Assembly: GCA_035560235.1 (NCBI GenBank)
Contig: DATMAG010000120.1
Coordinates: forward strand, 3,930 to 67,929
Direction: 5' to 3'
DNA: 64,000 nt
From: Blastocatellia bacterium
GTDB taxonomy: Bacteria > Acidobacteriota > Blastocatellia > RBC074
The notes beneath the pieces were generated by a model that saw nothing but the letters and a program-made list of their open reading frames with translations, searched no databases and had not been told where the DNA came from. Of the stretch, positions 46,695 through 64,000 are shown piece by piece; position 1 is the stretch's first letter; each line of letters begins with the position of its first letter. The translations under genes and the position numbers were made by a program.

Positions 46695-46910
46695 TTCAGC
46701 CGCATTAAGCTCCGGCACTCGGTACGTTGGCGGACAGACTGTGCGCTGTCGCTGCCATAAGCTTGTGTTTCCCCCGCCAGTCACTCCCCGGGAACAATCA
46801 TTCGCAGCTCAGTCAGACTTTCAGCGGCAGCCGGGCCTGTTCGCCGCCGGATGCTGTGGCGCGGCAGTCCCTGAACAACAGCAACAGACAACATCACGAG
46901 GAGGAAGATA

Positions 46911-47977: not shown

Positions 47978-48015
47978 GGTCGGAAGTGACAGATCCAAGG
48001 CTGGAGGTCAAAGGA

Positions 48016-48074
48016 AAGCGGGAGAACGCGCCGGACAGTTAATCTTGAAGCCCGGCAGATTCTCCCGCTTTTCG
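48016..48074 (+). terminator. terminator-like hairpin
   Basis: AAGCGGGAGAA ... TTCTCCCGCTT followed by TTCG. Confidence 0.45.
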
Positions 48075-48652: not shown

Positions 48653-49813
48653 ATGAAAATGACTTCGCAAAAACTGAAGACCATGAAAGCGGCAGCCGGC
48701 GCAGAGGGAGCCGCCGACTGGGTCACACTTAATGCCAGGCAGCGCTGTGATGAAGCGGGAATGTTCGAGCAGGAACTCTTTGCGCGGGTTGTGTCGCAGG
48801 ATGACGCGGTGCTGGCGCTGTCACAGCTTTATCAGCTCTATCTGGCGAAACTGAATCTGCCGGGCAAGCCGATTGGCACGCTGCTTTTTCTTGGCCCGAC
48901 CGGATCGGGCAAGACGCGGTCAGTCGAAGCCGCCGCCGAGATTCTCTTTGGCGATCCGTACGCGATGATCAAGATTGACTGCGCCGAGTTTCAGCATTCG
49001 CATGAAATCTCGAAGCTCGTTGGCTCGCCGCCAGGTTATCTCGGCCATCGTGAAACACAGCCGCTGCTGTCGCAGGACAATATTGACCGCTTTCAGACGC
49101 CGAACAAGAAGCTGACGTTCGTGCTGTTTGACGAAATCGAGAAGGCGAGCGATGCGCTCTGGCAACTGCTGCTCGGCATTCTCGACAAGGCCACGCTCAC
49201 GCTCGGTGACAATCGCCGCGTTGATTTTTCGCGCTGCGTGATTGTGATGACCTCGAATCTGGGCGCACGGGAAATGAGTCTGGTGACGGAAGGCAAAATG
49301 GGATTTACCCCGTGCGAGATCACCTCGCCGGAACTGAATGCGAAGCTCGAAAAGATCGGCATCGAGGCGGCGCGGCGCAAGTTCTCGCCGGAATTTATGA
49401 ACCGGCTCGACAAGGTGGTGGTCTTTCAGTCGCTGACTGAAGCCGCGATGAGACGCATTCTGGATCTGGAACTGGAAATTGTGCAGCGGCGCATTCTGAC
49501 CGCCGGACGCGGGCCGTTTGTGCTGCGCTGCACTGAAGAAGTGAAGGAGTTTCTGCTCAGGGAAGGCTTTGATCGTCGCTACGGGGCACGGCCTCTGAAA
49601 CGGGCGATTGAGCGCCACCTGATCATTCCGCTCTCGAATCTGATTGCAACCGGACAACTCAATGCCGGTGATGTGCTGGTGGTGGATGAGGATGATGGTG
49701 ACGGGGAACTTTGTTTCCGCAAGGCGAGTGGCGCTTCGGCATTCGGAATCGAGAGCGGATTGCATAATCCGGGCGGTTTTGTTCCCGCACCGGCAACTGT
49801 GCTGGGATTCTGA
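48653..49813 (+). CDS. stand-alone Clp/Hsp100 D2-type AAA+ ATPase
   Basis: A single NBD (GPTGSGKT; VLFDEIEKA; sensor/arginine finger) plus a C-terminal small domain. It aligns to the second ATPase module of ClpA/ClpB. There is no N-domain, D1 or ClpP-loop. Confidence 0.7.
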   Translation: MKMTSQKLKTMKAAAGAEGAADWVTLNARQRCDEAGMFEQELFARVVSQDDAVLALSQLYQLYLAKLNLPGKPIGTLLFLGPTGSGKTRSVEAAAEILFGDPYAMIKIDCAEFQHSHEISKLVGSPPGYLGHRETQPLLSQDNIDRFQTPNKKLTFVLFDEIEKASDALWQLLLGILDKATLTLGDNRRVDFSRCVIVMTSNLGAREMSLVTEGKMGFTPCEITSPELNAKLEKIGIEAARRKFSPEFMNRLDKVVVFQSLTEAAMRRILDLELEIVQRRILTAGRGPFVLRCTEEVKEFLLREGFDRRYGARPLKRAIERHLIIPLSNLIATGQLNAGDVLVVDEDDGDGELCFRKASGASAFGIESGLHNPGGFVPAPATVLGF

Positions 49814-49958
49814 AGAGGCACGAGCAATCGTCAACGTTCTGACAGGCAGCCGGAGGGCCTGAGCGGATTGCCGTTCAGCCCTCCCTCAGCCTGTCATCAG
49901 CCGGGTTACTCTCTGGAGTGGCCCGAATAAATAAATCAGCAGAACCCGGGAGGGACAT

Positions 49959-50621
49959 ATGAGGAAAAGTATTCTGGCTTTCATCGTGATCACGGCAATC
50001 AGCATGGCTCTTTATGGCTGTGCCACAACCAGCCGGGAAGGGACTGGAACCGGCACGGCCTCGCCTGCTGCAAAGATGTCTGATTCCGATCTGGAAAACA
50101 GCATCAAGGCGAAAATCAATTCTGATGAACAGCTCCGCGCTGCCAATCTGGATGTTGATGCCAATGCTGATCGCAATGAAGCGACTCTGTCCGGCACGGT
50201 CGAGTCTGAAGCATTGCGCACCCGCGCCGTTGAACTGGCGAAGAGCGCGCATTCAGGTCTGATCGTGACCGACAAGATTGATGTCAAACCGCGCGAACTC
50301 TCACGGTCGGAATACACCGATGAGAATGCGCGTGAAGAAAGAGCAAAGGCAAAGGAGCGTGGAGAAACAATCGGCTCTTCGCTTGACGATGCCTGGATTC
50401 ACGCCAAGATCGTGACCAAACTGATCGGCAATGCCAGTACGCCGGAACGCAAGATCAACGTGGACGTCAACAACAACGTGGTGACGCTGCGTGGTACTGT
50501 GGATACGGCGGAGGCGAAGATGGAGGCCGAACGTGTGGCGAAGGAAACCGAGGGCGTCAAGCGCGTCGTCAACCAGCTCAAGGTTGGTGCTGCGGCCAGT
50601 TCGACACCGGCCCATAAGTAA
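49959..50621 (+). CDS. OsmY-like lipoprotein with two BON domains
   Basis: Lipobox LYGCA and two BON repeats (...ATLSGTVES; ...VTLRGTVDT). Confidence 0.7.
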   Translation: MRKSILAFIVITAISMALYGCATTSREGTGTGTASPAAKMSDSDLENSIKAKINSDEQLRAANLDVDANADRNEATLSGTVESEALRTRAVELAKSAHSGLIVTDKIDVKPRELSRSEYTDENAREERAKAKERGETIGSSLDDAWIHAKIVTKLIGNASTPERKINVDVNNNVVTLRGTVDTAEAKMEAERVAKETEGVKRVVNQLKVGAAASSTPAHK

Positions 50622-50721
50622 TCATCGCATGATGTGAGATGCCTCCTTTTGGTTGATGGTCATAGTGGCTCAACCAGCTTCGGGCGGCGCTGTGGCGTCG
50701 CCCGCTTTTTTGTCAGAAGGA

Positions 50722-50787
50722 GATGACGGAACAAACGGAATGAACGGATGTTTTCGTGTGTTTCGTTCACTTCGTTTGTTCCGTCAT
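50722..50787. repeat. strong hairpin related to the GAATGAAC repeat family
   Basis: GATGACGGAACAAACGGAATGAACGGA / TCCGTTCACTTCGTTTGTTCCGTCATC arms. Confidence 0.5.
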
Positions 50788-50835
50788 CATTCTTCCGGCC
50801 CGACACCACTGCACTCGTGCTGAGTGAGCGCGAAT

Positions 50836-52038
50836 ATGAACAGAGGACTGCGCATAGGCCGGATTTTCGGCATCAGCATTCAGGTTGACGCCAGCTGGAT
50901 TCTGATTTTTCTGCTCGTGACCTGGAGTCTGGCTGCAGGCGTCTTTCCGGAGTGGCATCCGGAATGGTCAGGCTGGACGAACCAGGCTGTGGCGATTGCG
51001 GGAGCGCTGCTCTTCTTTGTTTCGATTCTGCTGCACGAACTGTCGCACTCGCTCGTGGCAAAGGCGCGCGGGCTGCCGGTGCGGCGGATTACGCTGTTTC
51101 TGTTCGGCGGCGTCTCAAACATCGAACGCGAGCCGCCAACACCAAAGACCGAATTTCTGATGGCCGTCGTCGGGCCGCTCACAAGCATCGTGCTGGGAGT
51201 CATCCTGGTTGCGCTGAGCACGGTCAGCCTTACCTGGCCGGAGGTCTTTCCGGGAGATACCAGGCAGATCATCGGCGCACTCGGCCCGGTTTCGACGCTG
51301 CTGCTGTGGCTCGGGCCGGTCAATATTTTTCTGGGCATCTTCAATCTGCTGCCCGGGTTTCCGCTCGACGGCGGGCGCATTCTGCGTTCGATTCTCTGGC
51401 AGACAAGCGGCGATCTGCAAAAGGCTACAAGATGGGCGGCCTCTGTCGGACGCCTCACCGGCTGGCTGTTTATTCTGACTGGCATTGCGATGGTCTTTGG
51501 CCTTCGCGTGCCTGTTTTCGGCGCAGGCCTGGTCAGTGGCCTGTGGCTGGTGCTGATCGGCTGGTTCCTGAGCGATGCGGCGGTGACGAGCTATCAGCAG
51601 ACAGTGATTCGCAACCTGCTCGAAGATGTCCCGGTCTTCCGGCTGATGCACTCGAATGTTCCGGTCGTGCCTCCGACGATGCCCGTCAGCGTGCTGGTTT
51701 ACGACTGGATTATGGGAACTGATGAACGCGCCTTTCCGGTGATGGAAGCAGATCATCTGGTTGGTCTGGTCTGCCTTGAGGATGTGCGCCGGGTGCCGCG
51801 CGAGCAGTGGGAGCAGACGACTGTCGGCGAGATCATGACGCGGCTGAATCAGCTTGATGTCGTGGCCGCTCGCGAAGACGCGAGCGAAGCGCTCGAAAAG
51901 CTCACGCGCCGCGACGTGCGTCAGGTGCCGGTTGTTGATAACGGACGGCTGGTCGGCCTGCTGCGCCGCCGCGACATCATCAAGTGGCTGCAGCTGCAGT
52001 CAGGCTTCAACCTGCCCGGCCAGAGCCTGCAGGCCTGA
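50836..52038 (+). CDS. site-2 protease (M50) family membrane metalloprotease with C-terminal CBS pair
   Basis: HELSH zinc motif, an LPGFPLDGGR second motif, and tandem CBS domains. Confidence 0.75.
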   Translation: MNRGLRIGRIFGISIQVDASWILIFLLVTWSLAAGVFPEWHPEWSGWTNQAVAIAGALLFFVSILLHELSHSLVAKARGLPVRRITLFLFGGVSNIEREPPTPKTEFLMAVVGPLTSIVLGVILVALSTVSLTWPEVFPGDTRQIIGALGPVSTLLLWLGPVNIFLGIFNLLPGFPLDGGRILRSILWQTSGDLQKATRWAASVGRLTGWLFILTGIAMVFGLRVPVFGAGLVSGLWLVLIGWFLSDAAVTSYQQTVIRNLLEDVPVFRLMHSNVPVVPPTMPVSVLVYDWIMGTDERAFPVMEADHLVGLVCLEDVRRVPREQWEQTTVGEIMTRLNQLDVVAAREDASEALEKLTRRDVRQVPVVDNGRLVGLLRRRDIIKWLQLQSGFNLPGQSLQA

Positions 52039-52125
52039 ACCGCCGGGATTGCTGAAACTCTGCTGCGGGCAATTCAGCCCGCAGCAGAGCGAGTCTGTGG
52101 TTACGGGAACGGCGCTGCTTTATCT

Positions 52126-52608
52126 TCAGGCCGGGCGTCCGATGATCGGGGGATGGCTTTCGTAGCTGCCTGCTGCGTGCCGCTCACGGCGGCGCAGGAG
52201 CGTATCAAGGGCAAGGACATTGTACTCAGAGTAGAAGATCAGAAAGAACGTGCAGAGTGAATAGAGCAGATTCTGTGCGACTGTCTGCGGCTGTTGCAGC
52301 AGAATCACTCCAATCGTCAGCCCCATCATCAGGACTGCCATCAGCGACAGGCCCACCAGCGTAAACAGACCGAGCAGTACCAGCACGCCGACAATGATTT
52401 CAAGAAAGGGCAGAAGCAGACTGAAGAGATGAACCAGGCCGGACGGCGCAGGTGTCTTTGCAAACTGCCCGCCCATCATTTCGGCAAAAGCGCCCGGCCC
52501 CGCCATCAGCTTGCCGAGACCATAAAAGAGAAAGATCAGCCCGAGGCTGACTCTCAGCAAAAGGTATCCCCAGTGTTTGTAGCTTTCCATATGCTCCTCC
52601 CTTCGCAA
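52126..52608 (-). CDS. DoxX-family membrane protein
   Basis: Four TM helices and a DoxX-like N-terminus (YLLLRVSLGLIFLFYGLGKL). Confidence 0.6.
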   Translation of the reverse strand: MRREEHMESYKHWGYLLLRVSLGLIFLFYGLGKLMAGPGAFAEMMGGQFAKTPAPSGLVHLFSLLLPFLEIIVGVLVLLGLFTLVGLSLMAVLMMGLTIGVILLQQPQTVAQNLLYSLCTFFLIFYSEYNVLALDTLLRRRERHAAGSYESHPPIIGRPA

Positions 52609-53172
52609 TCAGGCTCCGGCCCGTGTTTCCGGCTGAGGACGCGCGTCGGGCGGCGGAGTCCCGGTTTCATCTTCTTCGTCTTCTGTCTCTTCAATCAAAG
52701 CCGGATTCAGATCAGCTTCACTGAGCCGTTCCATCAGCCAGTGACGAAAGATTTCAGCTTCGTGGCCTTTGCGCGTCCACCGCGCGCGATTGAACATCGT
52801 CATCGCCATCATCAGCGCGTGATGCTGCCCGGCGCGATCACCGGCCAGTTCAAACTGATGATACAGGCGATCAATCAAATCCACGCTCTGCCGCGCCGCC
52901 TCTTCATCTCTGAAGCCGAGCTTCCCGGCAAAGAATCTTGAGTAAACATTCATCGGCTGGCCGGTCGTCGTGTACAGATCGAAATAGCCGCTGATCAGTC
53001 CCGCCTGCTGCAGAACCGAAGCGACATAACCGGGCCGCGAGCCGGTAATCATTGCCAGATCCTCAACGCTGCCCACGCCGTTCGTGAAGAGCGCAATGAT
53101 CTGATCCTTTTTCGATACGCGCCGCTCGCGCTGCGCGCCTGATTCACGTTCACGCATTAAGTCTCGTTTCAT
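52609..53172 (-). CDS. hypothetical protein with putative N-terminal HTH and acidic C-terminus
   Basis: Upstream of and coupled to doxX; no confident domain. Start uncertain. Confidence 0.35.
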   Translation of the reverse strand: MKRDLMRERESGAQRERRVSKKDQIIALFTNGVGSVEDLAMITGSRPGYVASVLQQAGLISGYFDLYTTTGQPMNVYSRFFAGKLGFRDEEAARQSVDLIDRLYHQFELAGDRAGQHHALMMAMTMFNRARWTRKGHEAEIFRHWLMERLSEADLNPALIEETEDEEDETGTPPPDARPQPETRAGA

Positions 53173-53177
53173 ACACT

Positions 53178-53801
53178 GTGAATAGTATGCAAATTGCAAG
53201 CCTCATCGGTGCCATGCCGAAACAGCAGTTGAAGAAAAAAGCTGAGAATGAACGGCGGCTCGAAGAACTGGCCGCCGCAATTCGCGTCTGTGTCAGATGC
53301 CCGCTGCACGAATCGCGCACTCTGGCCGTGCCGGGCGACGGAACAGTGAAGGCAAAGGTGATGATTATCGGCGAAGCGCCGGGGCGCGATGAGGATACGA
53401 CCGGACATCCGTTTGTGGGCGCAGCCGGGCGCTTTCTCGACTCGGTGCTTGAGGGCAGCGGCATCAGACGCGAGGATCTTTTCATCACCAACACGGTCAA
53501 ATGCCGTCCGCCGCAGAACCGCACGCCGCGCAGGCTGGAAGTTGACACCTGCACCTCGAACTATCTGTTCGAGCAGATTGAACTCATCAATCCGCAGCTC
53601 GTCATGCTGCTCGGCAGCGTGGCGGCAAAAAAAGTGCTGGGAATCAAAACCATCGGCGAGGCGCGCGGGCAGGTCATCGAACGCGACGGGCGCAAATATC
53701 TGGTCGGTTATCACCCGGCAGTCAGGTTTTATCGTGAAGACCTGGCCGAAAAGGTCAGAGAGGATTTCGATCTGCTCAGAAGAGTAATCGAACAATTGTA
53801 A
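53178..53801 (+). CDS. uracil-DNA glycosylase, family 4
   Basis: GEAPGRDED motif, Cys ligands (CVRCPLHE...) and an HPA(V) C-terminal motif. Confidence 0.75.
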   Translation: MNSMQIASLIGAMPKQQLKKKAENERRLEELAAAIRVCVRCPLHESRTLAVPGDGTVKAKVMIIGEAPGRDEDTTGHPFVGAAGRFLDSVLEGSGIRREDLFITNTVKCRPPQNRTPRRLEVDTCTSNYLFEQIELINPQLVMLLGSVAAKKVLGIKTIGEARGQVIERDGRKYLVGYHPAVRFYREDLAEKVREDFDLLRRVIEQL

Positions 53802-53862
53802 TCGCGCATTCTGTTCGCCGGACTGTCGGCCCGGCGAACAGTCAGTGAAAGGAGAAACAGTC

Positions 53863-54048
53863 ATGGCATCACACACTGATCCCGTCTGCGGAATGCAGGT
53901 TGATGAAGAGAATGCCGCCGGTGAATCGGAGTATCTGGAGCAGAGGTATTACTTCTGCTCGGAAGACTGCAAGCACAAGTTCGACCAGCGCCCGGAAGAT
54001 TACGTGGTCAGAAGCGGACAGGCCGGGCGCAGCGTGACGAGCGGCTGA
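53863..54048 (+). CDS. YHS/TRASH-domain metal-binding protein
   Basis: DPVCGMQV...YFCSEDCKHKF, with RBS AAGGAG. Confidence 0.55.
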   Translation: MASHTDPVCGMQVDEENAAGESEYLEQRYYFCSEDCKHKFDQRPEDYVVRSGQAGRSVTSG

Positions 54049-54091
54049 GGCGCTTCAGGGGCCGGGGCTCAACGGATTTTTTCAGGAGGAA

Positions 54092-54664
54092 GTGAGAATG
54101 CTGACCCGCTTGCGACGACGCAGAGATGAGGATGTCCTGAAAGGCCTGCTGGTCGGCGCGATCAGCGGGCTGGCTGCATCCTGGGTGATGAATCAGTTTC
54201 AGGCGTGGCTGAGCCATATGGCTGGCAGCGACGGTAATTCGCACGGCGCGCAGTCAGAGCAGCAGGGCACACCGCCGCACGGACAGCAGCCGCGCAGCGA
54301 AAATTCGGACGATGACGCGACTGAAAGACTCGCGGCTGTGCTGTCTGAAAACATTGCCGGACAGATGCTGACTGAAGACGAAAAGAAGTCTGCAGGCACA
54401 GCCCTTCACTATGCTTTTGGCGTCACGACCGGCGCGGCTTACGGCGCGGCAGCCGAACTGCTGCCACAGGTGAAGGCCGGAGCCGGAATACCATTCGGCG
54501 CGCTGGTCTGGCTGACGGCGGATGAGGGCGTCGTGCCTGCGCTCGGGCTGTCGAAAACGCCGACAGATTATCCGCTGTCAATTCATGCTTACTCACTGGC
54601 TTCGCATCTGGTCTACGGCGCGACAACCGAAGGCCTGCGCCGTGTGCTGCGCCCTTTGCTCTGA
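54092..54664 (+). CDS. DUF1440 family membrane protein
   Basis: Gly/Ala-rich TM helices in the typical DUF1440 pattern. Confidence 0.45.
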   Translation: MRMLTRLRRRRDEDVLKGLLVGAISGLAASWVMNQFQAWLSHMAGSDGNSHGAQSEQQGTPPHGQQPRSENSDDDATERLAAVLSENIAGQMLTEDEKKSAGTALHYAFGVTTGAAYGAAAELLPQVKAGAGIPFGALVWLTADEGVVPALGLSKTPTDYPLSIHAYSLASHLVYGATTEGLRRVLRPLL

Positions 54665-54767
54665 GGCGCGCTGTTCGAATTGAACAGGATCATTTGAAAA
54701 CAGGTCGTTCGGATCACGTGCAGAGAGTGAACTGAGAGCCGCCTGATAAATCACGTGGAGCAGATTT

Positions 54768-55277
54768 ATGTCACAGTTCAGCAGATGGAATGATGACCGC
54801 GAGCGCAGCTACGTCGAACGCGCCGCTGATGAGGTTCGCGCCTGGCTCGGTGACGACGAGGCTGTCAGGCGCAGGCGCGAGGATATGCGGCGCAACAGCC
54901 GGGGCGAGGGCCGTTACAAGGGCACCTTTGATCGCGCCGATCTGCATGGCTTCGGTTACGAAAGCGCGGAGAGCGGCATCCGGCAGCCGCGAACCCGTCA
55001 CGAATGGGAACGGATGCGCGGCCCGTATGCAGGGCGCGGTCCGCAGGGGGACAGGCGCTCTGATGAGCGAATCGCGGAAGAGATCAATGAGCAGCTGACG
55101 CATCACGGAATGATTGATGCCACACAGATTCAGGTCAGAGTGCAGGATGGCGAGGTCACGCATGAAGGCACTGTCGGCAGCCGCGCGGAGCGGCGCCTGG
55201 CTGAGGCCGCTGCTGAATCCTGCTCCGGCGTCAGAGAAGTTTTCAATCACCTGCGGGTCAATCGAAATGGTCAGTAA
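54768..55277 (+). CDS. SWFGD/BON-domain protein (short paralog of 46911-47977)
   Basis: Shares AWLGDDEA, GPYAGRGPQGDRRSDERIAEEINEQL and a BON domain (...ESCSGVREVFNHLRV) with the long paralog. Confidence 0.65.
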   Translation: MSQFSRWNDDRERSYVERAADEVRAWLGDDEAVRRRREDMRRNSRGEGRYKGTFDRADLHGFGYESAESGIRQPRTRHEWERMRGPYAGRGPQGDRRSDERIAEEINEQLTHHGMIDATQIQVRVQDGEVTHEGTVGSRAERRLAEAAAESCSGVREVFNHLRVNRNGQ

Positions 55278-55360
55278 CAGCAGATCGGATTTCAACTCAG
55301 TGTCTGGAAGCCGCAATTGAAAACTGACCGGAAAGTCTGCACTGCATTCACCAGAAGGTT

Positions 55361-56845
55361 ATGATGATCGCTTCAGTAAATCAGTGGCTGAAGCGCGCAC
55401 GCACGGCGGCCTGGCTGACCGGGCTGCTGTCGGCTGCCGTTGCGGGACAGAGTGTGCCGGGGCCGGGATTCAATCTTTTTTCGCCGCCGCAGGAGATTGA
55501 AATCGGGCGGGAATCAGCCGCACAAATCGAGCGGCAGGCGCCGCTGCTGCGCGATGCCACTCTCAGCAGTTATCTCAATCGCATCGGGCTGCAGCTCGCC
55601 GCGCAGGCTCCGGGCGAGCGTTACCCGTGGAGCTTCAGAGTCATCAATGTTCCTGACATTGCCGCATTCGCGCTGCCGGGCGGGCCTGTTTATCTGACTC
55701 GCGGAGCGATTGAAGCGGCGCACAGCGAAGGAGAGCTGGCCGGACTGATTGCGCACGCGCTGGCGCATATTGCCCTGCGTCACGGGGCCGGGCAGGCCTC
55801 GAAGGCATATCTGGCGCAGGCGGGCCTGAGCGTGATGGGCGGGCTGCCGGGCGGTGCGCTGGCCGGGATCATCGGCGCGGTGGGTGGTTGCGGACTCAAT
55901 CCGGTCTTTCTCAATTACAGCCGCGAGGCCGAGATGCAGGCCGATCTGCTGAGTGCGCAGATGCTGGCGCAGGCCGGATACGATCCGCGCGAACTTGCGA
56001 GCTTCTTCGAGACGGCGCGCCGCAGCGGGAATGCTCAGTCCGGGCAGACATCCTGCTTCAGCGATCATCCGTCGCTGCTCAGTCGGCGCGAGCGCGTCAT
56101 CCAGTCGGCCATGCAACTGCTCGTGCCGCGCCCGCTGCAGCGTGGCTACAGCTTCGATCAGATGCAGCATTACGTCGCAAGCCTGCCGCGTTCAGACCTC
56201 AGAAGCATTCCTTTTGGCGGCGCAGTGGCGGGTGTGTCGCGGCCACCGTCGGGCGCGGTGATTGATGTTCGCATCGAAAAGCCTTCTCCCCGAACCATCA
56301 TCTGGCGTCAGCCGGGGAGCCTTTATAACGTCGCTTATCCGGATAACTGGCAGGCCTGGCCGAGCAGCGACAGGTTCGGGGTGACTTTCGTTCCGGCGGG
56401 CGGAGCCGTGCAGAGAAACGGCATCGAGCAGCTTGTGTACGGCGCAATGATCAATCACTACCGCCCGCTTGGCGACAACAGCCGGTTCAGCGGGCGGCCA
56501 CAGCGCAGGCTGCGTTACGTCGGCGGACGCGGCGCGCTGCCCGAGGCGACGAATGATCTGCTCAACAGCCTCCTGCAGAATAATCCGCAGCTCGATTACG
56601 TGCGCGGTTCAGCGCGCCGGGGAACGATTGACGGAGGCCGGGCGATCACGCTGACGCTGACCGGACGTTCACCCATCACCGGACGCGCCCAGCAGGTGCA
56701 GCTTTACACGCGGACGCGCGATGAAGAGCGCATAAATGATGCGCTCTTCATCGCGCCGGATGATGAGTTCGCTGACCTCCGTCACATCTTCAATCAGATG
56801 CTGCGCAGCCTGAACATTGATGATCGGGCGCTGGACGAGAACTGA
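55361..56845 (+). CDS. M48/BepA-like peptidase homolog with HALAH in place of HExxH
   Basis: SEGELAGLIAHALAHIALRHG aligns to the BepA block NEAELASVMAHEISHVTQRH. The catalytic Glu codon reads GCG (Ala) at 55757-59. A signal peptide is present. Confidence 0.65.
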   Translation: MMIASVNQWLKRARTAAWLTGLLSAAVAGQSVPGPGFNLFSPPQEIEIGRESAAQIERQAPLLRDATLSSYLNRIGLQLAAQAPGERYPWSFRVINVPDIAAFALPGGPVYLTRGAIEAAHSEGELAGLIAHALAHIALRHGAGQASKAYLAQAGLSVMGGLPGGALAGIIGAVGGCGLNPVFLNYSREAEMQADLLSAQMLAQAGYDPRELASFFETARRSGNAQSGQTSCFSDHPSLLSRRERVIQSAMQLLVPRPLQRGYSFDQMQHYVASLPRSDLRSIPFGGAVAGVSRPPSGAVIDVRIEKPSPRTIIWRQPGSLYNVAYPDNWQAWPSSDRFGVTFVPAGGAVQRNGIEQLVYGAMINHYRPLGDNSRFSGRPQRRLRYVGGRGALPEATNDLLNSLLQNNPQLDYVRGSARRGTIDGGRAITLTLTGRSPITGRAQQVQLYTRTRDEERINDALFIAPDDEFADLRHIFNQMLRSLNIDDRALDEN

Positions 56846-56861
56846 CCGGAAGGCTCGGCTG

Positions 56862-57896
56862 ATGGACGTGATTCTCTTTCCCTTTGGTGATTACTGGTGG
56901 CTGTACGCAGGCTTTGTCGTCTTCGTGCTGCTGATGCTGGCGCTCGATCTGGGCGTTTTTCAGCGCCACGCGCACGCGGTTTCGTTTCGTGAGGCTGCGA
57001 TCTGGAGCGCCGTCTGGGTGATCCTCTCGCTCGGATTCAATTTTGCTCTCTGGCGCTATGCGCTCTGGCAACTGCCGCGCGATCCGCGTCTCGCGGCAAT
57101 TCCCGGTTTCGATCCCGAAGCGGCGGCGTGGCAGGCGGCGCTGGAATTTCTGACCGGCTATGTGGTCGAAAAATCGCTCTCGGTTGATAACATCTTCATC
57201 TTCGTTGTCATCTTCAGCTACTTCAATACTCCGGCCAGATATCAGCACCGGGTGCTTTTTTACGGCATCCTGGGCGCGCTCGTCTTTCGCGCCAGCTTCA
57301 TCGCCATCGGCACGGCGCTCGTGCAGTATCACTGGGTGCTGGTGGTCTTCGGCCTCTTTCTGATCGTCACGGGCGGGCGGATGATCTTTGCCGGTCGCGA
57401 AAAGTACGAGCCGGAGCGCAACCCGCTGCTGCGGCTCTTCCAGCGGCTGGTTCCGGTGACGGCTGAGCCTGAGGATGAGCATTTCTTCGTGCGGCAGAAC
57501 GGCAGGCTGCACGCCACGCCGCTGCTGATTGCGCTCTTCGTCCTTGAAATGACGGACATCATCTTTGCGATTGATTCGGTGCCCGCGATCTTTGCGCTGA
57601 CGAATGAGCCGCTGATCGTCTTCACTTCAAACATCCTTGCGATTCTCGGCCTGCGTTCGATGTACTTCATGCTCGCCGGAGCGGTGGAAAAATTTCATCT
57701 GCTCAAATACGGCCTGGCGGTCGTGCTTATCTTTGTTGGCCTGAAGATGGTCTGGCTCAATGATCTCTTTGGCGGCAAATTCCCGATCAGCCTCTCGCTC
57801 GGCATCATCATCTCAACCATCGGCGCTTCGATTGTTCTTTCGCTGCTCTTTCCGAAACGTGCGCAGGCGTGGCACAGGCGCGAGCGGCACATCTGA
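56862..57896 (+). CDS. TerC-family integral membrane protein
   Basis: TerC-like TM layout and conserved Asp/Glu in TM (VDNIFIFVVIF; LEMTDIIFAIDSVPA). Confidence 0.7.
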   Translation: MDVILFPFGDYWWLYAGFVVFVLLMLALDLGVFQRHAHAVSFREAAIWSAVWVILSLGFNFALWRYALWQLPRDPRLAAIPGFDPEAAAWQAALEFLTGYVVEKSLSVDNIFIFVVIFSYFNTPARYQHRVLFYGILGALVFRASFIAIGTALVQYHWVLVVFGLFLIVTGGRMIFAGREKYEPERNPLLRLFQRLVPVTAEPEDEHFFVRQNGRLHATPLLIALFVLEMTDIIFAIDSVPAIFALTNEPLIVFTSNILAILGLRSMYFMLAGAVEKFHLLKYGLAVVLIFVGLKMVWLNDLFGGKFPISLSLGIIISTIGASIVLSLLFPKRAQAWHRRERHI

Positions 57897-57971
57897 ATTG
57901 CGGCACGATGCCGGGCTGATGACTTTGTCCTCCGGAGGCGGTCCAGGGCTTGCAGGTGATGAGCGCGGAGG

Positions 57972-58223
57972 ATGCATCGGATGACTGAATGGGAAGACCC
58001 TGATCCTGAAAAAATTGCCTTCGAACTGATCGAGCAGTATGCGCCGGAGGTGGCTGAACTGCTGCTCGAAATGGCCGCACAGTCAGATTCGCTGCCGGAA
58101 CTGACCGCGCGACTGTACGACCTGGCGCTTGAGAACGATCTGCCCGAAGAGGATTTCAGAGCCGCTGCCATCGCGCTGCGTTACGCCCGCCGTTCACTGA
58201 CCGCACCTGTGCTGACTCACTGA
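57972..58223 (+). CDS. hypothetical small acidic protein
   Basis: ORF only. Confidence 0.3.
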   Translation: MHRMTEWEDPDPEKIAFELIEQYAPEVAELLLEMAAQSDSLPELTARLYDLALENDLPEEDFRAAAIALRYARRSLTAPVLTH

Positions 58224-58459
58224 TCCAGCGCCGTCACACACTCAGAGCATATTTCAGGAGCCGTTGTCGAACAGTTGCTCAATGCATTTTTTATACAGGA
58301 TTGTTCGCAGTGCGGGCAGCGGGCGTATGTTTTAGAAACAAGCGGCGGCTGCGCGGATTGAAAATCCTGAGCAAAGCGGCGACCGCAGGCGGGCGAAAAA
58401 CTGGCACATCCCTTGCGAATGTTCTGGTGAAGCATTCCGGATGAAGGGAGTACCAACTC

Positions 58460-58841
58460 ATGGCTTCAAAACCTGAGGCTGTTCGGCAGACGGCGGAGCA
58501 GATTCGCCGGTGTATTGAACTCTGCCAGAACTGCCACACTGTCTGTCTGCGCACCCTCGCTTACTGCCTGCGCATGGGTGGACAGCAGGCCGCTGAACAG
58601 CATCTGCGAGTGATGACCGACTGCGCTGAAATCTGTCAGACGAGCGCTGATTTCATGCTGCGCGGTTCCGATTTTCACGCCCGCGTCTGTGGCGTCTGCG
58701 CTGAAGTCTGCGTGCGCTGCGCCGAATCGTGCGAGGCATGAGGCATTCGGAGATGATGACCGGATGAAGGCCTGCGCTGAAACCTGTCGTGAATGCGCCG
58801 AATCCTGCCGCACCATGGCTGACACCGCAGCCGCATAACAA
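58460..58841 (+). pseudogene. Csp3-like Cys-rich four-helix-bundle (DUF326) copper-storage protein, apparent +1 frameshift at 58739-58763
   Basis: Frame 0 gives ...CAEVCVRCAESCEA then TGA. The +1 frame continues ...FGDDDRMKACAETCRECAESCRTMADTAAA, a typical DUF326 C-terminus. About 18 Cys in total. Confidence 0.45.
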
Positions 58842-58867
58842 CCCTGATTTCTCACGAAAGGCCAAAG

Positions 58868-59503
58868 ATGAATTACCAGGCGAAACAGTTCAATCTGAGC
58901 GGGCTCAGTGGCATCTCGGATCAGACGCTGGAGATGCACTTCAAGCTCTACGAAGGTTACGTCAAGGGCACCAATCTGCTGAATGAAAAGATCAGCGAAA
59001 TACTGAAGAGCGGAAAAGTCGAACAGGCGGATCAGCCGGCTTATTCGGAACTGAAGCGGCGGCTCGGCTTTGAATACAACGGCATGGTGCTGCACGAATA
59101 TTACTTCGGCAATCTGATGCAGGGCGGCGGCGGCGATGCGCCGTCAGGCTCAGGGTTTTTCCAGGCGGCGGAAACGAGCTGCGGCAGCTATCAGGTCTGG
59201 AAGGAGGATTTCATCAGCGTCGGCAGGATGCGCGGAGTCGGCTGGGCGATCTGTTATCAGGATCCGCAGAGCGGGCTGCTCTCGAATCACTGGATCACGC
59301 TGCACCAGGTCAATAACATCGCGGGTTTCACGCCCATCCTCGTGATGGATGTGTGGGAACACGCCTTTCTGCTTGATTACGCTCCGGCAGAGCGACCGAA
59401 ATATATCGAGGCTTTCTTCTCAAATATCAACTGGCAGGCTGTCGAAGCGCGCCTTGCAGGACCCGGTCAGACCGGGACGCAGACCCGTCGTTCGACTGTC
59501 TGA
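58868..59503 (+). CDS. Fe/Mn-family superoxide dismutase-like protein
   Basis: DVWEHAF motif and conserved His positions; the N-terminal region is divergent. Confidence 0.7.
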   Translation: MNYQAKQFNLSGLSGISDQTLEMHFKLYEGYVKGTNLLNEKISEILKSGKVEQADQPAYSELKRRLGFEYNGMVLHEYYFGNLMQGGGGDAPSGSGFFQAAETSCGSYQVWKEDFISVGRMRGVGWAICYQDPQSGLLSNHWITLHQVNNIAGFTPILVMDVWEHAFLLDYAPAERPKYIEAFFSNINWQAVEARLAGPGQTGTQTRRSTV

Positions 59504-59607
59504 TGAAATGAAAGTCATGAGACTGCGTTCTTTGAACTGACAGAAACGGCGCGAGGCGTACTGTCAGCCCCACCGCTGAACGCCACACTGGGTAAGGAGA
59601 ATATCAG

Positions 59608-59916
59608 ATGAGCGCCATGCTTCAACTTGTCAATCAGCAGCCGGAGCGGTCACCTCTGCAGGAGGTACAGTCAGGCAGGTTCGACACTCTCATCCAGCTG
59701 GGTGAATCGCTGGAGCAGAAACTGGCCTGCGCGCTGGCCTGGATTATGCAACTGCGGAGTGAAAACGAGCGCCTGCGCACTGAACTGATGCAGGTCAGAC
59801 GGGAGTTGATGATCAGAGAAACGCTCCTGCGCAATGCGGCAGTGCGCGAGCGCGAATTGCGTGTGCATTTTGCGCGCGGCGGGCAGCGCCAGTCCTCAGG
59901 CAGTGCCGGGTTATGA
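59608..59916 (+). CDS. small coiled-coil protein
   Basis: 102-aa ORF with heptad periodicity (LRSENERLRTELMQVRRELMIRE). Its stop overlaps the next start (ATGA). Confidence 0.35.
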   Translation: MSAMLQLVNQQPERSPLQEVQSGRFDTLIQLGESLEQKLACALAWIMQLRSENERLRTELMQVRRELMIRETLLRNAAVRERELRVHFARGGQRQSSGSAGL

Positions 59917-61700
59917 GTTTCAAGGCAAAAAGAATTCTTTTCAGAATCGCCCTTGGGCTGATCATTTACCTGGCCATCAGTTTTTCTCCCGCCGGATCTG
60001 CTCCGCCCGGGCAGGTTCATCAGCATCCCGGCAGCAGCGAGCAGCGTCAGCCTGCTGCCACCCCGGAACGGCTGATGCCGGGACGCAGGTTGTATGAACG
60101 CAGTTGCGCCGCCTGTCACGGCTCCGACGGTCGCGCGCAAACGGTCAGAGCCTCCGCCATGAAAGTCCGGCCCGCCGATCTGACCGCGCTGCACGAGATG
60201 ACCGATGACGAAATTTACCAGGTCATCACCGACGGCATTGCCACGAGCGGAATGCCGTCATTCAAAAACAGACTGAGCGATAACGAGCGCCGTCAGATCG
60301 CTCAGTTTGTGCAGACGCTGCGCCGTCAGCCGGCTGAAACAGCTCATCAGGCTCATCACCACGATCACACCGCAACGCCGTCGCCGCAGGATCAGCCGCC
60401 TGCCGCTGATTCACACAGCGCCGATCATCAGCCTCACGCCGAGCACGGCGCAGCGGGGATGATGATCAATACAGTCACCGGCGGCCCGTTTCGTTCGATG
60501 CGCGCCATCGGTTCCGGCACGTCGCTGCAGCCTGCCTCGACGCCGATGTGGATGTGGCATTTCAGTCCGGGCGAGTGGATGCTGATGCTCCACACCGACA
60601 TGAGGACCGGCTTCAATTATCAGAGCGGACCGCGCGGCGTGGGCAGGGCTGAATCAGAAAACTGGCTGATGCTGATGGCTGAACGCAGTCTCGGCCCGGG
60701 CCGCCTGATGCTGCGCGGCATGCTTTCAGCCGAACCGCTGACAGCGCCGCACGGCGGATTCCCGCAGCTCTTTCAGACGGGCGAGACTTATCGCCGCCGC
60801 CCGATCATTGACGCGCAGCATCCGCACGATCTGGTGATGGAACTCGCGGCGAGTTATTCGGTGCCGCTTTCGGAAAACGTTTCGGTGCAGCTTTACGGCG
60901 GCCCGGTCGGTGAACCGGCGCTCGGCCCCGTCGCCTTTATGCATCGCGCTTCAGCCATTGAAAACCCGGCAGCGCCGCTCGGCCATCACTGGCAGGATTC
61001 AACGCACATCACGCACGGAGTCATCACCGGTTCACTGACGGCGTGGAAGTTCAGGTTCGAGGCTTCGGGCTTTCAGGGCAGAGAGCCGGACGAAGACCGC
61101 GTGGCGATTGAGTTCGGGCGGCTCGACTCATACAGCATTCGCACCTGGTTTACGCCGACGCCGAACTGGGCGATGCAGTTTTCATACGGGCATCTGACTG
61201 ATCCCGAAGTGGTCACGCCGGGCGATCTTGACCGGATGACGGCCTCGCTGACGTACAATCGTCCGCTTGCGAATGGCAACTGGGCGACTTCGCTGATCTG
61301 GGGACGCAATGCGGAAGAACACGGCAACTCGAATTCATACCTGCTGGAATCAACGGTCAGATTCCGGCGCCGGAATCATCTCTACACGCGGCTTGAACTG
61401 CTCGATAAAAGCGGGCTGCTTTCTGACAATATTTTTGGCCGTCCGGGGCTGATTCGCGCGCCTGTGGTGCCGCCTGAAGCTGTTCACTTTCGTCCGCCCG
61501 CAGAGTTCGAGCGCACCTTTCGCGTCGGCGCTTTCACTTTCGGCGGCGTGCACGACTTCATTGACACTGAACTGTTCCGCGTCGGCCTCGGTGCTGACGT
61601 GACCTTTTATCATCAGCCGTCAGCGCTCACCCGGATTTACGGGCGCAATCCGGTCTCAACTCACGTCTTTCTGCGCTTCCGGCCCGGCGAGATGCGCTGA
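59913..61700 (+). CDS. cytochrome c fused to His-rich linker and Met/His-rich ~400-aa C-terminal domain
   Basis: N-terminal TM/signal, CAACHGSDG heme motif, a His-rich linker (HQAHHHDHTATPSPQDQPPAADSHSADHQPHAEHG) and M-x-M motifs (MMINTV, MWMWHF, MLMLH, LMLMAE). Confidence 0.55.
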   Translation: MSFKAKRILFRIALGLIIYLAISFSPAGSAPPGQVHQHPGSSEQRQPAATPERLMPGRRLYERSCAACHGSDGRAQTVRASAMKVRPADLTALHEMTDDEIYQVITDGIATSGMPSFKNRLSDNERRQIAQFVQTLRRQPAETAHQAHHHDHTATPSPQDQPPAADSHSADHQPHAEHGAAGMMINTVTGGPFRSMRAIGSGTSLQPASTPMWMWHFSPGEWMLMLHTDMRTGFNYQSGPRGVGRAESENWLMLMAERSLGPGRLMLRGMLSAEPLTAPHGGFPQLFQTGETYRRRPIIDAQHPHDLVMELAASYSVPLSENVSVQLYGGPVGEPALGPVAFMHRASAIENPAAPLGHHWQDSTHITHGVITGSLTAWKFRFEASGFQGREPDEDRVAIEFGRLDSYSIRTWFTPTPNWAMQFSYGHLTDPEVVTPGDLDRMTASLTYNRPLANGNWATSLIWGRNAEEHGNSNSYLLESTVRFRRRNHLYTRLELLDKSGLLSDNIFGRPGLIRAPVVPPEAVHFRPPAEFERTFRVGAFTFGGVHDFIDTELFRVGLGADVTFYHQPSALTRIYGRNPVSTHVFLRFRPGEMR

Positions 61701-61724
61701 AGCTGACGGCAGAGGAGATTCGTT

Positions 61725-62603
61725 ATGGTTCGTCGCATTCTGGTCTTTCTGCTGGCGCTGGTGGTGCTGGGCGTCGTGATCGGCGTTGTCTTCCGCTCGC
61801 GCTGGCGCATGCCGCAGGCCGCGCACGAGGTTGCGCAGAAGGCGACCGATTCGGCCACGACCGGCAAGGTCAAAGTCGCGCTCGCCCTTTCAAAACGTCT
61901 CTCGGCTTATGACATCAGTGTGGACACGCACGATGGCATCGTCACGCTGACCGGGCGCGTGCCGTCAGAGATTGACCGCGAACTGGCAGCGAATGTGACA
62001 AAGGACACGGTCGGCGTTTCACAGGTGAACAATCAGCTGGAGGTTGATCCGGGCGTGACACCGTCAGACGCCGGAGCGCGTGAAAGCGCCCGCGTGGCCG
62101 ATCTGGAAATCCGCGCTGATTTGCAGGAACGTCTCAGCTCAAGCGAGCAGTTGAAGGGGCAGAACATTCAGATCAGCGTTGAGAATCGCGTCGTGACGCT
62201 GAGCGGTCAGGTCGAAACTCCGCAGCAGAAGACCGGAGCTGAACAGCTTGCGCGCAGCGTGTCGAATGTCAGCAGCGTCGTCAATAACCTGACCGTCGCC
62301 AGGCCGTCAGCCCCGCAGTCCGAAGTGCCCGGTGTTTCTGAAAATGCCACAAAGGACCGGGAGCTTTCGCGTCAGGTGCTGTTTGCGCTTTTCAGCGAGC
62401 GGGAATATTTCAGCGATGTCGGCGCGATCAGGGCTGAAGGTCAGAACGGAATGGTCACGCTCGCAGGTACTGTCGCCTCACGCGCCGAAAAGGCTCTCGC
62501 TGAACGCATCGCCAGAGATGTCAGCGGCGTGCGCAGCGTGAATAATCAGCTCACCGTCGCTACTCAGCCGACACCAGCTCCGGGGCGACGCTCAGGCAAA
62601 TGA
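61725..62603 (+). CDS. membrane-anchored protein with three BON domains
   Basis: N-terminal TM then three BON repeats (...GIVTLTGRV; ...RVVTLSGQV; ...GMVTLAGTV). Confidence 0.7.
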   Translation: MVRRILVFLLALVVLGVVIGVVFRSRWRMPQAAHEVAQKATDSATTGKVKVALALSKRLSAYDISVDTHDGIVTLTGRVPSEIDRELAANVTKDTVGVSQVNNQLEVDPGVTPSDAGARESARVADLEIRADLQERLSSSEQLKGQNIQISVENRVVTLSGQVETPQQKTGAEQLARSVSNVSSVVNNLTVARPSAPQSEVPGVSENATKDRELSRQVLFALFSEREYFSDVGAIRAEGQNGMVTLAGTVASRAEKALAERIARDVSGVRSVNNQLTVATQPTPAPGRRSGK

Positions 62604-62750
62604 GATTCTCGACGAAGCCACACGAACGAAGATTTTTCGACAGGATTTACAGGACGAGCAGAATGATTGTGTCTGGAAAGACCTGTTTCATCTCGTTCAT
62701 CCTGTAAATCCTGTCTGATATTTCTTCGTGCGGCTTCGTGGAGAATAATC

Positions 62751-64000
62751 CTACAGCGGCCAGAAGACGGGCACGACCAGCATAATCACGACGAGCACCG
62801 CCAGCGTCAGCAGGCCGCCGACGCGCACGTAATCGGCAAAGCGGTAATTGCCCGGCCCGTACACAATCGCGCAGACCGGTTCGAGCGGCGTCGGAAAGGA
62901 GCAGGAAGCGGCAATCGCAATCGCCATCACGTAAGAGCGCGGATTGACCTGCAACTGATGCGCGACGTTGATGGCAATCGGCGTCAGCAGCATCGCCGCC
63001 GCCGCGTTCGCCATCGGCTGCGTCAGGAGCGTGGTGAAGATCAGAAATCCGGCCATCACCACGAGCGGCCCGCCTGACCCCAGAGCGCCGGTCACATACT
63101 GCGCAAGCACACGCGCCGCGCCGGTCTTTTCCATCGCCACGCCCATCGGAATCGTGGCTGCAATCAGCACGATGGCCGACCATTCAACCCGCGCGTAGGC
63201 TTCGCGCACGGTGATGCAGCCGGTCAGCAGCATCGCCGCCGCTCCGGCCATGGCGATGAGCGCAATCGGCATGAGATTCAGCCCGGCAGTGACTGCCACC
63301 GCCAGAAAGAGCGCAATGGCCCACGCCGCCTTGTTGCGGCGCAGCGGCGTGTGTTCGACGTCATCGAGCGTCAGAAAGTTCGGGTCTTCGCGCAGACTGT
63401 CAATCCGCCGCTTCGAACCCTGAATGACGAGCATGTCGCCAACCTTGAGCCGGATGTCTCCGATGTTTTTCGTCAGCGGCTGATCGTGCCGGTACACGGC
63501 CAGCACATCTGCGCCGTAGCGCGAAGCAAAGCTGATGCGTTTGAGCGTGCGGCCTGTAAAGGTCGAGTTGGGCGAAAGAATCGCTTCAACAATAACTGTG
63601 TCACTGCTGCCTTTGCCATCGCTCTGAGCGCCCTCAGCGGCTGATGTTCCGGGGCCGGGTTCGGAAGTCTGTCCGGTTTCGGCGTCGCGTTTCAGATCAA
63701 GCCCCTGTGCGTCCTTGACGCTCAGAATCTTGTCGAGTTTGCCGCTCACCAGCAGCACATCACCTTCCTGCAGCACTTCGTCAACGTGCGGCAGCAGGCG
63801 TTCGCCCTGGCGCACGATTTTGATGATCTGTAATTCATAGAGATTGCGAAAGTCGGCCTCGCCGAGCGTGTGCGCGATCAGCGGCGAATCAGGCCGCACC
63901 ACTATCTCAGTCACATAATCCTTGTCCTGCCGCTCTGCCGCTTCAGATTCGGTCGCATGCTTTGGCAGCAGCCGCACGCCTATCAGCACCATGTACAGAA
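62751..64000 (-). CDS. SLC13/DASS-type permease with tandem TrkA-C domains, C-terminal part; gene continues past window end
   Basis: Two TrkA-C-like soluble repeats followed by a permease half. The ORF runs to the window edge with no plausible start. Confidence 0.6.
   Translation of the reverse strand, partial: LYMVLIGVRLLPKHATESEAAERQDKDYVTEIVVRPDSPLIAHTLGEADFRNLYELQIIKIVRQGERLLPHVDEVLQEGDVLLVSGKLDKILSVKDAQGLDLKRDAETGQTSEPGPGTSAAEGAQSDGKGSSDTVIVEAILSPNSTFTGRTLKRISFASRYGADVLAVYRHDQPLTKNIGDIRLKVGDMLVIQGSKRRIDSLREDPNFLTLDDVEHTPLRRNKAAWAIALFLAVAVTAGLNLMPIALIAMAGAAAMLLTGCITVREAYARVEWSAIVLIAATIPMGVAMEKTGAARVLAQYVTGALGSGGPLVVMAGFLIFTTLLTQPMANAAAAMLLTPIAINVAHQLQVNPRSYVMAIAIAASCSFPTPLEPVCAIVYGPGNYRFADYVRVGGLLTLAVLVVIMLVVPVFWPL

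Follow-up and report, generated by a model that had tools for sequence, protein, structure and literature searches.

A cytochrome c-tethered, porin-like β-barrel from a Blastocatellia bacterium represents a large unnamed family of candidate outer-membrane copper porins

Introduction

Few parts of bacterial copper homeostasis are as unsettled as the passage of copper over the outer membrane. The outer-membrane copper routes given in a 2020 review are general porins, the TonB-dependent proteins NosA and OprC, chalkophore uptake, PcoB/CopB and ComC (PMC7558416). OprC and NosA are copper-specific transporters of the outer membrane with Met/His(/Cys) sites (PMC7558416). PcoB consists of a barrel and a disordered N-terminal domain rich in His and Met, which is required for Cu efflux (PMC12509749), and the barrel of the E. 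coli protein has 12 strands (PMC9210255). The cupredoxin CopI is needed for resistance to copper in Rubrivivax gelatinosus (PMC4600104), and the cop cluster of C. metallidurans holds copI together with copJ, a putative cytochrome c, and the thioredoxin-like copG (PMC12029693). A cytochrome joined to a porin is found in Cyc2, the signature of which is PXFAR[Q/K][T/Y] five residues upstream of CXXCH and PXL four residues downstream (PMC8406198). The present work concerns a 595-residue protein encoded in a 64,000-nucleotide (nt) stretch of DNA from a Blastocatellia bacterium (assembly GCA_035560235.1, contig DATMAG010000120.1, positions 3,930 to 67,929 of the forward strand), which is referred to as the window. 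This protein joins a class-I cytochrome c to a C-terminal β-barrel, and the barrel, which belongs to a large unnamed family, is probably an outer-membrane copper porin.

Organization of the 595-residue protein

The protein consists of four parts, namely a signal peptide, a class-I cytochrome c, a disordered linker and a C-terminal β-barrel. It is identical to the NCBI entry 'MAG TPA: cytochrome c [Blastocatellia bacterium]' (P0001). The open reading frame (ORF) and its parts are as follows.

59913..61700, + strand: the 595-residue fusion of cytochrome c, His-rich linker and β-barrel (ORF list)
59913..59999, + strand: predicted signal peptide of Sec type, about residues 1–29, MSFKAKRILFRIALGLIIYLAISFSPAGS, read from the sequence; an N-terminal helix in the model
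60072..60326, + strand: class-I mono-haem cytochrome c, residues 54–138 (PF13442, E = 4.4e-14; PF00034, E = 3e-8)
60105–60119, + strand: haem site CAACH, residues 65–69, read from the sequence
60327..60551, + strand: disordered His/Pro-rich linker and conserved GGPF...GSGT lead-in, residues 139–213 (composition and model confidence)
60552..61697, + strand: porin-like outer-membrane β-barrel of an unannotated family, residues 214–595 (~380 residues; AlphaFold2 model, Foldseek and strand pattern)

The cytochrome domain scores 53.0 bits against PF13442 (cut-off 27) and 35.3 bits against PF00034 (cut-off 21.3), and the sequence matches of the protein in the PDB (6h5l, 3mk7) fall in this domain alone. 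In the full-length AlphaFold model its predicted local distance difference test (pLDDT) score is 80–94. The likely axial (distal) ligand is Met114, in the segment SGM114PSF, and both CxxCH and GMPxF are kept among the cytochrome-fused homologues. By its profile score, CXXCH motif and distal Met the domain is classed as a class-I c-type cytochrome, with haem attachment predicted. The linker contains 9 His, 9 Pro and 4 Met, has pLDDT <50 across residues 141–213 of the full-length model, and is hypervariable in length and sequence between homologues. An earlier sequence-only reading of this DNA had described the signal peptide, the CAACH mono-haem cytochrome c and the His-rich linker, and on these Pfam matches, sequence and model agree.

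Predicted fold of the C-terminal domain

A first AlphaFold model of the full-length protein, from a shallow alignment of close relatives, reached pLDDT 64 with the conserved loops poorly modelled. It was superseded by a barrel-only AlphaFold2 model made from 16 divergent homologue sequences, which has pLDDT 88.4, a predicted template modelling (pTM) score of 0.88 and 18 strands by DSSP. Foldseek comparison with the PDB gives 16-strand general porins as the best matches (E ~1e-13, to 1e-10; probability 1.0; TM score 0.5–0.64; ~10% identity), among them BpsOmp38, Omp32, OmpF and OmpK35/36. PcoB is not among the top 50 of these matches. Hydrophobic and polar faces alternate along most of the predicted strands, as expected of a membrane barrel. 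Two short strands (residues 283–302) lack this amphipathic alternation and may form a hairpin within a long loop, inside the lumen of the modelled barrel, which would leave a wall of 16 strands. The strand number is given here as 16–18, with 18 strands assigned by DSSP and 16 in the nearest structures.

At the level of sequence the barrel has no Pfam, NCBIfam or PDB match in single-sequence and profile searches, and the family profile gives no match to the PDB even at E <= 10. The porin families of Pfam give no match at E <= 10, and one homologue matches BBP2 weakly (E = 0.0067). By its predicted fold the barrel is of general-porin type, outside the porin sequence families. As the sequence-only reading had supposed, the structure prediction gave a membrane-type β-barrel for this domain and not a soluble non-barrel fold. 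The same reading called the domain Met/His-rich, which holds in part. Its overall composition is moderate, with 13 Met (3.4%), 17 His (4.5%) and three M-x-M motifs, but 9 of the 13 Met are packed into residues 212–270 and the key Met and His residues are kept family-wide.

Extent of the family and conserved residues

The barrel family has at least 8,000 word-sharing candidates in a set of 5.8 billion proteins, and comprises 3,061 clusters at 50% identity with E <= 1e-3. Relatives recognized by the DAQHPHD-type motif occur in at least 594 species-representative genomes. The barrel is present in Acidobacteriota, Melainabacteria, Verrucomicrobiota, Alpha-, Beta- and Gammaproteobacteria, Gemmatimonadota, Planctomycetota, Armatimonadota and Bacteroidota; a second profile search yielded for the most part the Acidobacteriota clade again, with little gain in diversity. 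In RefSeq the members are named 'hypothetical protein', or 'c-type cytochrome' if fused. The conserved elements of the barrel are located as follows.

60579..60722, + strand: strands β1–β3, with polar (lumen) faces M223, M225, H227 / M253, M255, E257 / M266, R268, M270 (strand-face analysis)
60810..60830, + strand: invariant motif D300-A-Q302-H303-P-H305-D306 in long loop L2, used as the search pattern for genomes
60939..61010, + strand: long loop L3, with M-H344-R345 and G-H358-H359-W-Q-D362-S-T-H365-I (loop assigned by DSSP and topology reasoning)

The family motifs are GSGT, DxQHxHD, MHR and HHWQDSTH, and the window protein carries every conserved position, including all six His. Conservation was assessed in 150 representatives that are 33–62% identical to the window barrel. 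The six His are kept in nearly all of them (H303 99%, H305 98%, H344 97%, H358 99%, H359 99%, H365 100%), as are a set of acidic, amide and Arg residues (D300 95%, Q302 99%, D306 92%, D362 99%, E291 98%, E391 99%, R345 99%). On the wall, M253 and M270 are each conserved at 97%, M225 at 88%, H227 at 80% and M255 at 79%. The Met/His sites that had been postulated from the sequence alone are accordingly found in the homologues, at 79–100% for the positions listed. Among close relatives the barrel is 62–86% identical, and the cytochrome is variable or missing.

Loops are usually the least conserved part of outer-membrane proteins. In this protein no part is better conserved than the loops, which suggests that L2 and L3 tuck into the barrel in the manner of a porin's constriction loop. 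Given a periplasmic N-terminus, the loops with the conserved His would lie on the extracellular or lumen side of the modelled barrel. A His/carboxylate loop cluster opposite a Met-lined wall is what would be expected of a filter for both Cu(II) and Cu(I), if the inferred geometry is correct.

These residues bear on the explanation that the protein is an ordinary general-diffusion porin with no metal role and that its cytochrome fusion and copper neighbours are coincidental. The nearest structures are indeed general porins, and the immediate neighbours in the window are generic envelope-stress genes. In general porins, however, one does not find six His and numerous loop residues that stay invariant from phylum to phylum. 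The barrel is moreover fused to at least seven different kinds of copper-related module, and Cu(I) ATPases lie adjacent to it in several phyla and on plasmids, so that this explanation is scarcely credible.

The near-100% invariance of the HxH, the HH and two further His, plus Met, would also suit an outer-membrane copper metalloenzyme or electron conduit. In such a protein the six His would hold one or two permanent copper ions in the barrel and an external or periplasmic substrate such as Cu(I), Fe(II) or Mn(II) would undergo redox chemistry, with electrons passing via the tethered cytochrome c or a cupredoxin. The set of six His and Met presumably resembles the ligands of non-coupled binuclear copper enzymes. 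Pfam, NCBIfam and PDB searches, however, give no likeness to a known oxidoreductase. A metalloenzyme is considered improbable. The same applies to the proposal that the barrel is a copper redox centre, a haem-independent, copper-based counterpart of porin–cytochrome conduits such as Cyc2, which would carry out cuprous oxidation or oxidation of external metals and exchange electrons with cytochrome c or cupredoxin.

Domains fused to the barrel

Of the 120 closest relatives 69 carry cytochrome c on the barrel, compared with 6 of 149 diverse representatives (~4%). Homologues both with and without the module, for which the sequence-only reading had proposed a search, therefore exist. One member (P0182) carries instead a cupredoxin with a C-x4-H-x4-M type-1 site. 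HMBD (PF19335) is fused to the barrel in P0026, P0122, P0286 and P0296, SCO1/SenC in P0141, P0159 and P0163, and YHS in P0169 and P0180. Long Met-rich MxM tails are present at the N- or C-terminus of some members, and His-rich stretches on others. Across the family the fused modules are always at a periplasmic terminus of the barrel. As these partners are copper modules, and as the gene context agrees with them, it is rather likely that the barrel itself handles copper.

Two types of electron carrier, cytochrome c and cupredoxin, are found among the fused modules, as a metalloenzyme would have it. Against that explanation stand the small share (~4%) of diverse representatives with a cytochrome and the nature of the partners, which are mostly copper-trafficking modules and not electron carriers.

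A further N-terminal module was observed on some barrels. It consists of Cys-rich repeats over ~110 residues (GRYSCCMKPACDVCA...GVCGECYGGW), with 16–18 Cys in total and no Pfam match, and is carried by P0123, P0136, P0138, P0223, P0229, P0262 and the barrel ORFs of loci L059 and L063. From its sequence, it may be an undescribed periplasmic metal-binding domain.

Gene context of the homologues

The surroundings of the barrel gene were compared in 80 species-representative loci. A P1B ATPase lies nearby in 14 of the 80, within 1.4 kilobases (kb) in 11, where it is often tens of bases downstream of the barrel gene and on the same strand, and at 1.8–4.1 kb in three. The 14 loci belong to Pyrinomonadaceae, Bryobacteraceae, Burkholderiales, Caulobacteraceae and one Bacteroidota genome, and the signature of Cu(I)/Ag(I) pumps, CPC / YN(x4)P / MxxSS, is present in every one of the 14 ATPases. 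Other recurrent neighbours are a PCYCGC protein directly downstream (14 loci), a TlpA-like thioredoxin upstream (18 loci), a BNR protein with a C-terminal CusF domain (12 loci), small Cys-rich proteins and a peroxiredoxin. In the Pyrinomonadaceae loci L004–L037 the order is operon-like, with a TlpA-like thioredoxin, a ~170-residue Cys-containing protein, a ~105-residue Cys-rich protein, the barrel, PCYCGC and peroxiredoxin. The BNR–CusF protein is also nearby in these loci, on the opposite strand in most, and the two Cys proteins (~170 and ~105 residues) have no Pfam match.

The cytochrome-fused members have similar surroundings. Only 8 nt separate the gene for P0091 from an HMBD-ATPase behind it, and the gene for P0003 has a YHS gene 161 nt upstream, together with a two-component system, a MerR regulator and a YHS-HMBD-ATPase. 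P0013 abuts a YHS gene, and P0019 is near an E1-E2 ATPase. On plasmid Paks1 of Pontibacter akesuensis, where the homologue is A0W33_RS20300, the order is copper ATPase, hypothetical protein, barrel and 'four-helix bundle copper-binding protein'. On a plasmid of Sphingobium baderi the barrel (QQ987_RS19865) lies among MerR, glutaredoxin, DUF305 and heavy-metal ATPase genes. The plasmid copies in cultured bacteria are thus situated on metal-resistance islands. Taken together, the genomic context points to copper, and mostly to copper resistance. The copper-handling role at the envelope that had been advanced from the sequence is supported by the fusions, by the Cu(I)-type ATPases in 14 of 80 loci and by the plasmid islands.

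In three loci a cytochrome-less barrel gene has directly behind it, in the same orientation, a gene of its own for a PF13442 cytochrome, mono-haem and membrane-anchored, namely in Pyrinomonadaceae (L021), Thermoanaerobaculia (L072) and Opitutaceae (L071). Cytochrome and barrel probably form a functional pair, on the ground that they are fused in one clade and adjacent in others. These stand-alone cytochromes directly downstream in three other lineages are also in keeping with the metalloenzyme. A multicopper oxidase adjoins the barrel in only 1 of the 80 loci (L044), so that another oxidant may be needed. Two of the three stand-alone cytochromes (L021:9258-9890 and L072:9165-9788) have His-rich tails (KHTHTHTHKH, SHHH) that resemble the His-rich linker of the fused form. 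In a Planctomycetia locus, a YHS domain fused to an ArsP-type permease (L069:9128-10306) is encoded 18 nt after the barrel gene; judged by its sequence, it could be an inner-membrane partner on the same metal route.

Proposed mechanism

It is proposed that the protein would be exported by the Sec system and receive its haem in the periplasm. The C-terminal ~380 residues would then enter the outer membrane as a 16-strand-type barrel with both termini periplasmic. The loops DxQHxHD and MHR...HHWQDSTH would fold into the barrel and face the Met/His wall of β1–β3, loops and wall together forming a copper-binding filter of His, Met and carboxylate groups. Copper, the presumed substrate of the barrel, would be pumped to the periplasm by a CopA-type ATPase, caught by the His-rich tether and handed to the barrel and out of the cell. 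The logic of export would be the same as for PcoB with its His/Met-rich N-terminal domain. The tethered cytochrome would trade one electron with the bound copper, and would take the place that other copper-resistance systems give to a redox protein, be it a multicopper oxidase, CopI (a cupredoxin) or CopJ (a cytochrome). Export downstream of a CopA-type pump is taken as the most likely direction. That the tethered haem interconverts Cu(I) and Cu(II) is a more tentative suggestion, possible but doubtful.

Several points weigh against this proposal. The lumen position of the His cluster and the pore size are deduced from the topology of the model, and the case for the whole family is computational throughout. 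An import of copper to build cuproenzymes would also be consistent with the SCO1 fusions and the TlpA-like neighbours, and PcoB alone has been reported to sensitise cells and to permit copper influx (PMC9210255). The six invariant His exceed what a simple channel filter would appear to need, and a catalytic metal bound by them is conceivable. Most members of the family are without a redox module, and the cytochrome therefore cannot be central to barrel function. In the window itself, the immediate neighbours (BON, M48, TerC and superoxide dismutase, SOD) resemble a general envelope- and oxidative-stress cluster, and the DNA within about 10 kb of the barrel gene holds neither CopA nor Cus genes.

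The main rival to export is import of copper for the assembly of cuproenzymes. Extracellular Cu(II) would enter through the barrel, captured by the His/Asp cluster, and the cytochrome would reduce it to Cu(I). This would pass along the Met wall to periplasmic chaperones (Sco, HMBD, YHS and Met-rich tails) and supply cuproenzymes such as cytochrome oxidase. The SCO1/SenC fusions in three representatives, the TlpA-like thioredoxins conserved upstream in 18 loci and the influx through lone PcoB (PMC9210255) are all compatible with this direction. So is the inferred topology, which places His/carboxylate groups outward and Met toward the periplasm, and several cytochrome-type ORFs in the window would need a copper supply. 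The commonest and strongest neighbour, however, is a CopA-type efflux ATPase, at times with a MerR regulator, homologues are found on plasmid metal-resistance islands with DUF305 and Csp-like genes, and Met-rich tails are typical of resistance proteins. Import is judged unlikely, and export through a copper porin is preferred.

The family would be a further, very widespread candidate in outer-membrane copper passage, annotated at present only as 'hypothetical protein' or, when fused, 'cytochrome c'. Its cytochrome-tethered form suggests that some bacteria wire copper redox conversion straight to an outer-membrane component. If the proposal is true, thousands of genes that now lack annotation would gain a name and a mechanism open to testing, and there would be a copper-resistance marker for soil Acidobacteriota.

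The 102-residue ORF and its upstream region

The barrel gene is preceded by a small ORF and by conserved upstream elements.

59608..59916, + strand: 102-residue helical, coiled-coil-like ORF without signal peptide; clade-specific partner gene (ORF list)
59594–59599, + strand: ribosome-binding site AAGGAG, a good match, preceding the 102-residue ORF
59526..59545, + strand: conserved intergenic block CGTTCTTTGAACTGACAGAA, identical in the window, L081 and L086; candidate promoter element
59564..59579, + strand: palindrome TCAGC-N6-GCTGA, ~30 nt before the start codon, invariant in the window, L081 and L086; candidate operator

At the junction GGGTTATGAGTTTC the two ORFs overlap in ATGA, the TGA of the 102-residue ORF occupying 59914–59916 and the ATG of the 595-residue ORF 59913–59915. 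Both ORFs and their overlap, which can be read in the sequence, are as first described. Only six relatives of the small ORF are found among the 5.8 billion proteins, and a metagenome scan for it gave none. In L081/L082 and L086 the length of 102 residues, the 4-nt overlap with the cytochrome–barrel gene and the flanking genes are all kept; this synteny represents two or three related Blastocatellia genomes, L081/L082 and L086 being nearly identical here. The small protein is 48–56% identical to its syntenic relatives, compared with ~80% for the full-length barrel protein, and the substitutions by codon position number 34/30/54, the third being enriched. Because of this third-position excess and of the kept length and overlap, the ORF probably encodes a real, fast-evolving protein. 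More distant relatives of 88 residues occur without a barrel gene.

Pfam gives coiled-coil-type matches to the 102-residue product (ZapB and Cep57, E ~0.006–0.009); they are in the direction of the coiled-coil identity first assigned to it, but are weak and under the cut-off. Its operon pairing with the barrel is likewise real but limited to a few close relatives. The small ORF is a partner of the barrel in one narrow Blastocatellia clade and not family-wide.

The two upstream blocks are identical in the window, L081 and L086, compared with ~70% identity of the flanking coding DNA. The palindrome is unique in the window, with 0 occurrences expected by chance. As both blocks are invariant in the three loci and one is palindromic, the unit of small ORF and barrel may have a promoter and an operator of its own. 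A scan for promoters and terminators gave no more sites than in shuffled sequence. An extracytoplasmic function (ECF)-type promoter in the conserved upstream block was considered and dropped, the -10 region not being conserved.

Neighbouring genes in the window

The gene order around the barrel is DUF1440, BON, M48 peptidase, TerC, 83-residue ORF, Csp3, SOD, small ORF, barrel and BON. The neighbours of most interest are these.

53845..54048, + strand: small YHS-domain protein (DPVCGM...YYFCS motifs)
58460..58741, + strand: Csp3-family cytosolic copper-storage four-helix bundle, 93 residues, Cys-rich (PDB 3lmf, E = 4e-24; RkCSP3 6zif, E = 6e-12; CSP3 5fig/5arm, E ~4e-5)
58868–59503: SOD (Pfam)
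61725..62603, + strand: triple-BON, OsmY-like envelope protein, 24 nt downstream of the barrel gene (PF04972, E = 5.5e-51 over three stretches; NF007858 OsmY, E = 1e-37)

Of the neighbours named in the sequence-only reading, the SOD and the Csp3-like protein are confirmed, but the YHS protein is 5.6 kb upstream and not adjacent. The Csp3 homologue is barely detected by Pfam and NCBIfam. Its true start may differ from the call, since gene calling gives 128 residues for its syntenic counterpart in L081 and L086. The triple-BON gene has the same position in L081, L082 and L086, and is probably co-transcribed with the barrel gene. No multicopper oxidase is present in the scanned region of the window, and an Rfam scan of 58200–62800 gave sub-threshold chance matches only.

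These genes are situated in a long same-strand envelope-stress run (45198–62603) with a DegP/HtrA-like protease, ClpB-like AAA, M50 protease with CBS, M48, TerC, SOD and BON-domain proteins, the last at 46727–47977, 49959–50621, 54768–55277 and 61725–62603. Synteny with L081 and L086 extends from M48 to the last BON. With the listed TTG start at 56817, the TerC ORF has 29 nt (56817–56845) in common with the end of the ORF for the M48 peptidase, and the real TerC start is probably further downstream than listed. Further upstream on the + strand, three CXXCH-containing ORFs at ~23126, ~24357 and ~28851 (280, 406 and 128 codons) may be part of a respiratory cytochrome cluster.

Comparison with known systems

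The sequence-only reading likened the C-terminal domain to CopB/PcoB. The likeness stands for the functional logic and falls for family membership. Like PcoB/CopB, the window protein has an outer-membrane barrel after a poorly conserved, disordered, His/Met-rich periplasmic region, a copper-resistance context and a periplasmic redox partner. In PcoB that partner is the multicopper oxidase PcoA, whereas the window barrel tethers a cytochrome c covalently. PcoB has 12 strands, compared with 16–18, in the manner of general porins, in the window barrel, and the invariant six-His cluster belongs to the new family. Homology to PcoB/CopB was sought and rejected. Neither the window protein nor four divergent homologues match PF05275, even at E <= 10, and hhalign of the family profile against PcoB (plasmid pRHB28-C13_2) gives a probability of 0.12%.

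The 16-strand general porins (Omp32, OmpF, OmpK36, BpsOmp38) are the best structural matches, and their long internal loops are a feature that in the window barrel too could form a constriction. They differ in sequence (~10% identity), in that the loops of the window barrel are its most conserved part and rich in His, Asp and Glu, and in the periplasmic metal-binding or redox domains appended to barrels of the window family.

OprC and NosA are 22-strand TonB-dependent barrels with a plug domain. They transport copper over the outer membrane with Met/His sites, as proposed for the window barrel, which in contrast has no TonB-receptor Pfam signal. Cupredoxin, cytochrome c and thioredoxin-like modules, as in CopI, CopJ and CopG, recur as fusions or neighbours of the barrel; those are free periplasmic proteins, whereas here the cytochrome is covalently tethered to an outer-membrane component. 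A literature search of incomplete coverage found no described 'copper porin' of this type, and an earlier description is possible.

Cyc2 shares the overall layout, in which a signal peptide is followed by a cytochrome with one CXXCH, fused in its turn to a porin of 16-strand type (PMC8406198). This layout raises the possibility of a Cyc2-like extracellular Fe(II) oxidation or electron transfer, with the haem as catalytic centre. Both Cyc2-defining motifs are absent, however. A regular-expression search for them was negative, the CAACH being flanked by RLMPGRRLYERS upstream and GSDGRAQTVR downstream. The window cytochrome is a complete class-I globular domain on a long tether, with ~75 largely disordered residues before the barrel, unlike the short haem peptide by or inside the barrel of Cyc2, and the neighbours are copper genes and not iron-oxidation genes. 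A Cyc2-like function is very unlikely. The pattern of conservation is also reversed. In Cyc2 the cytochrome part is conserved best and the porin poorly, whereas in the window family it is the barrel that shows high conservation, with a variable cytochrome and with most members haem-less. If the copper porin proposal is true, the window protein would represent a second natural kind of cytochrome–porin fusion besides Cyc2.

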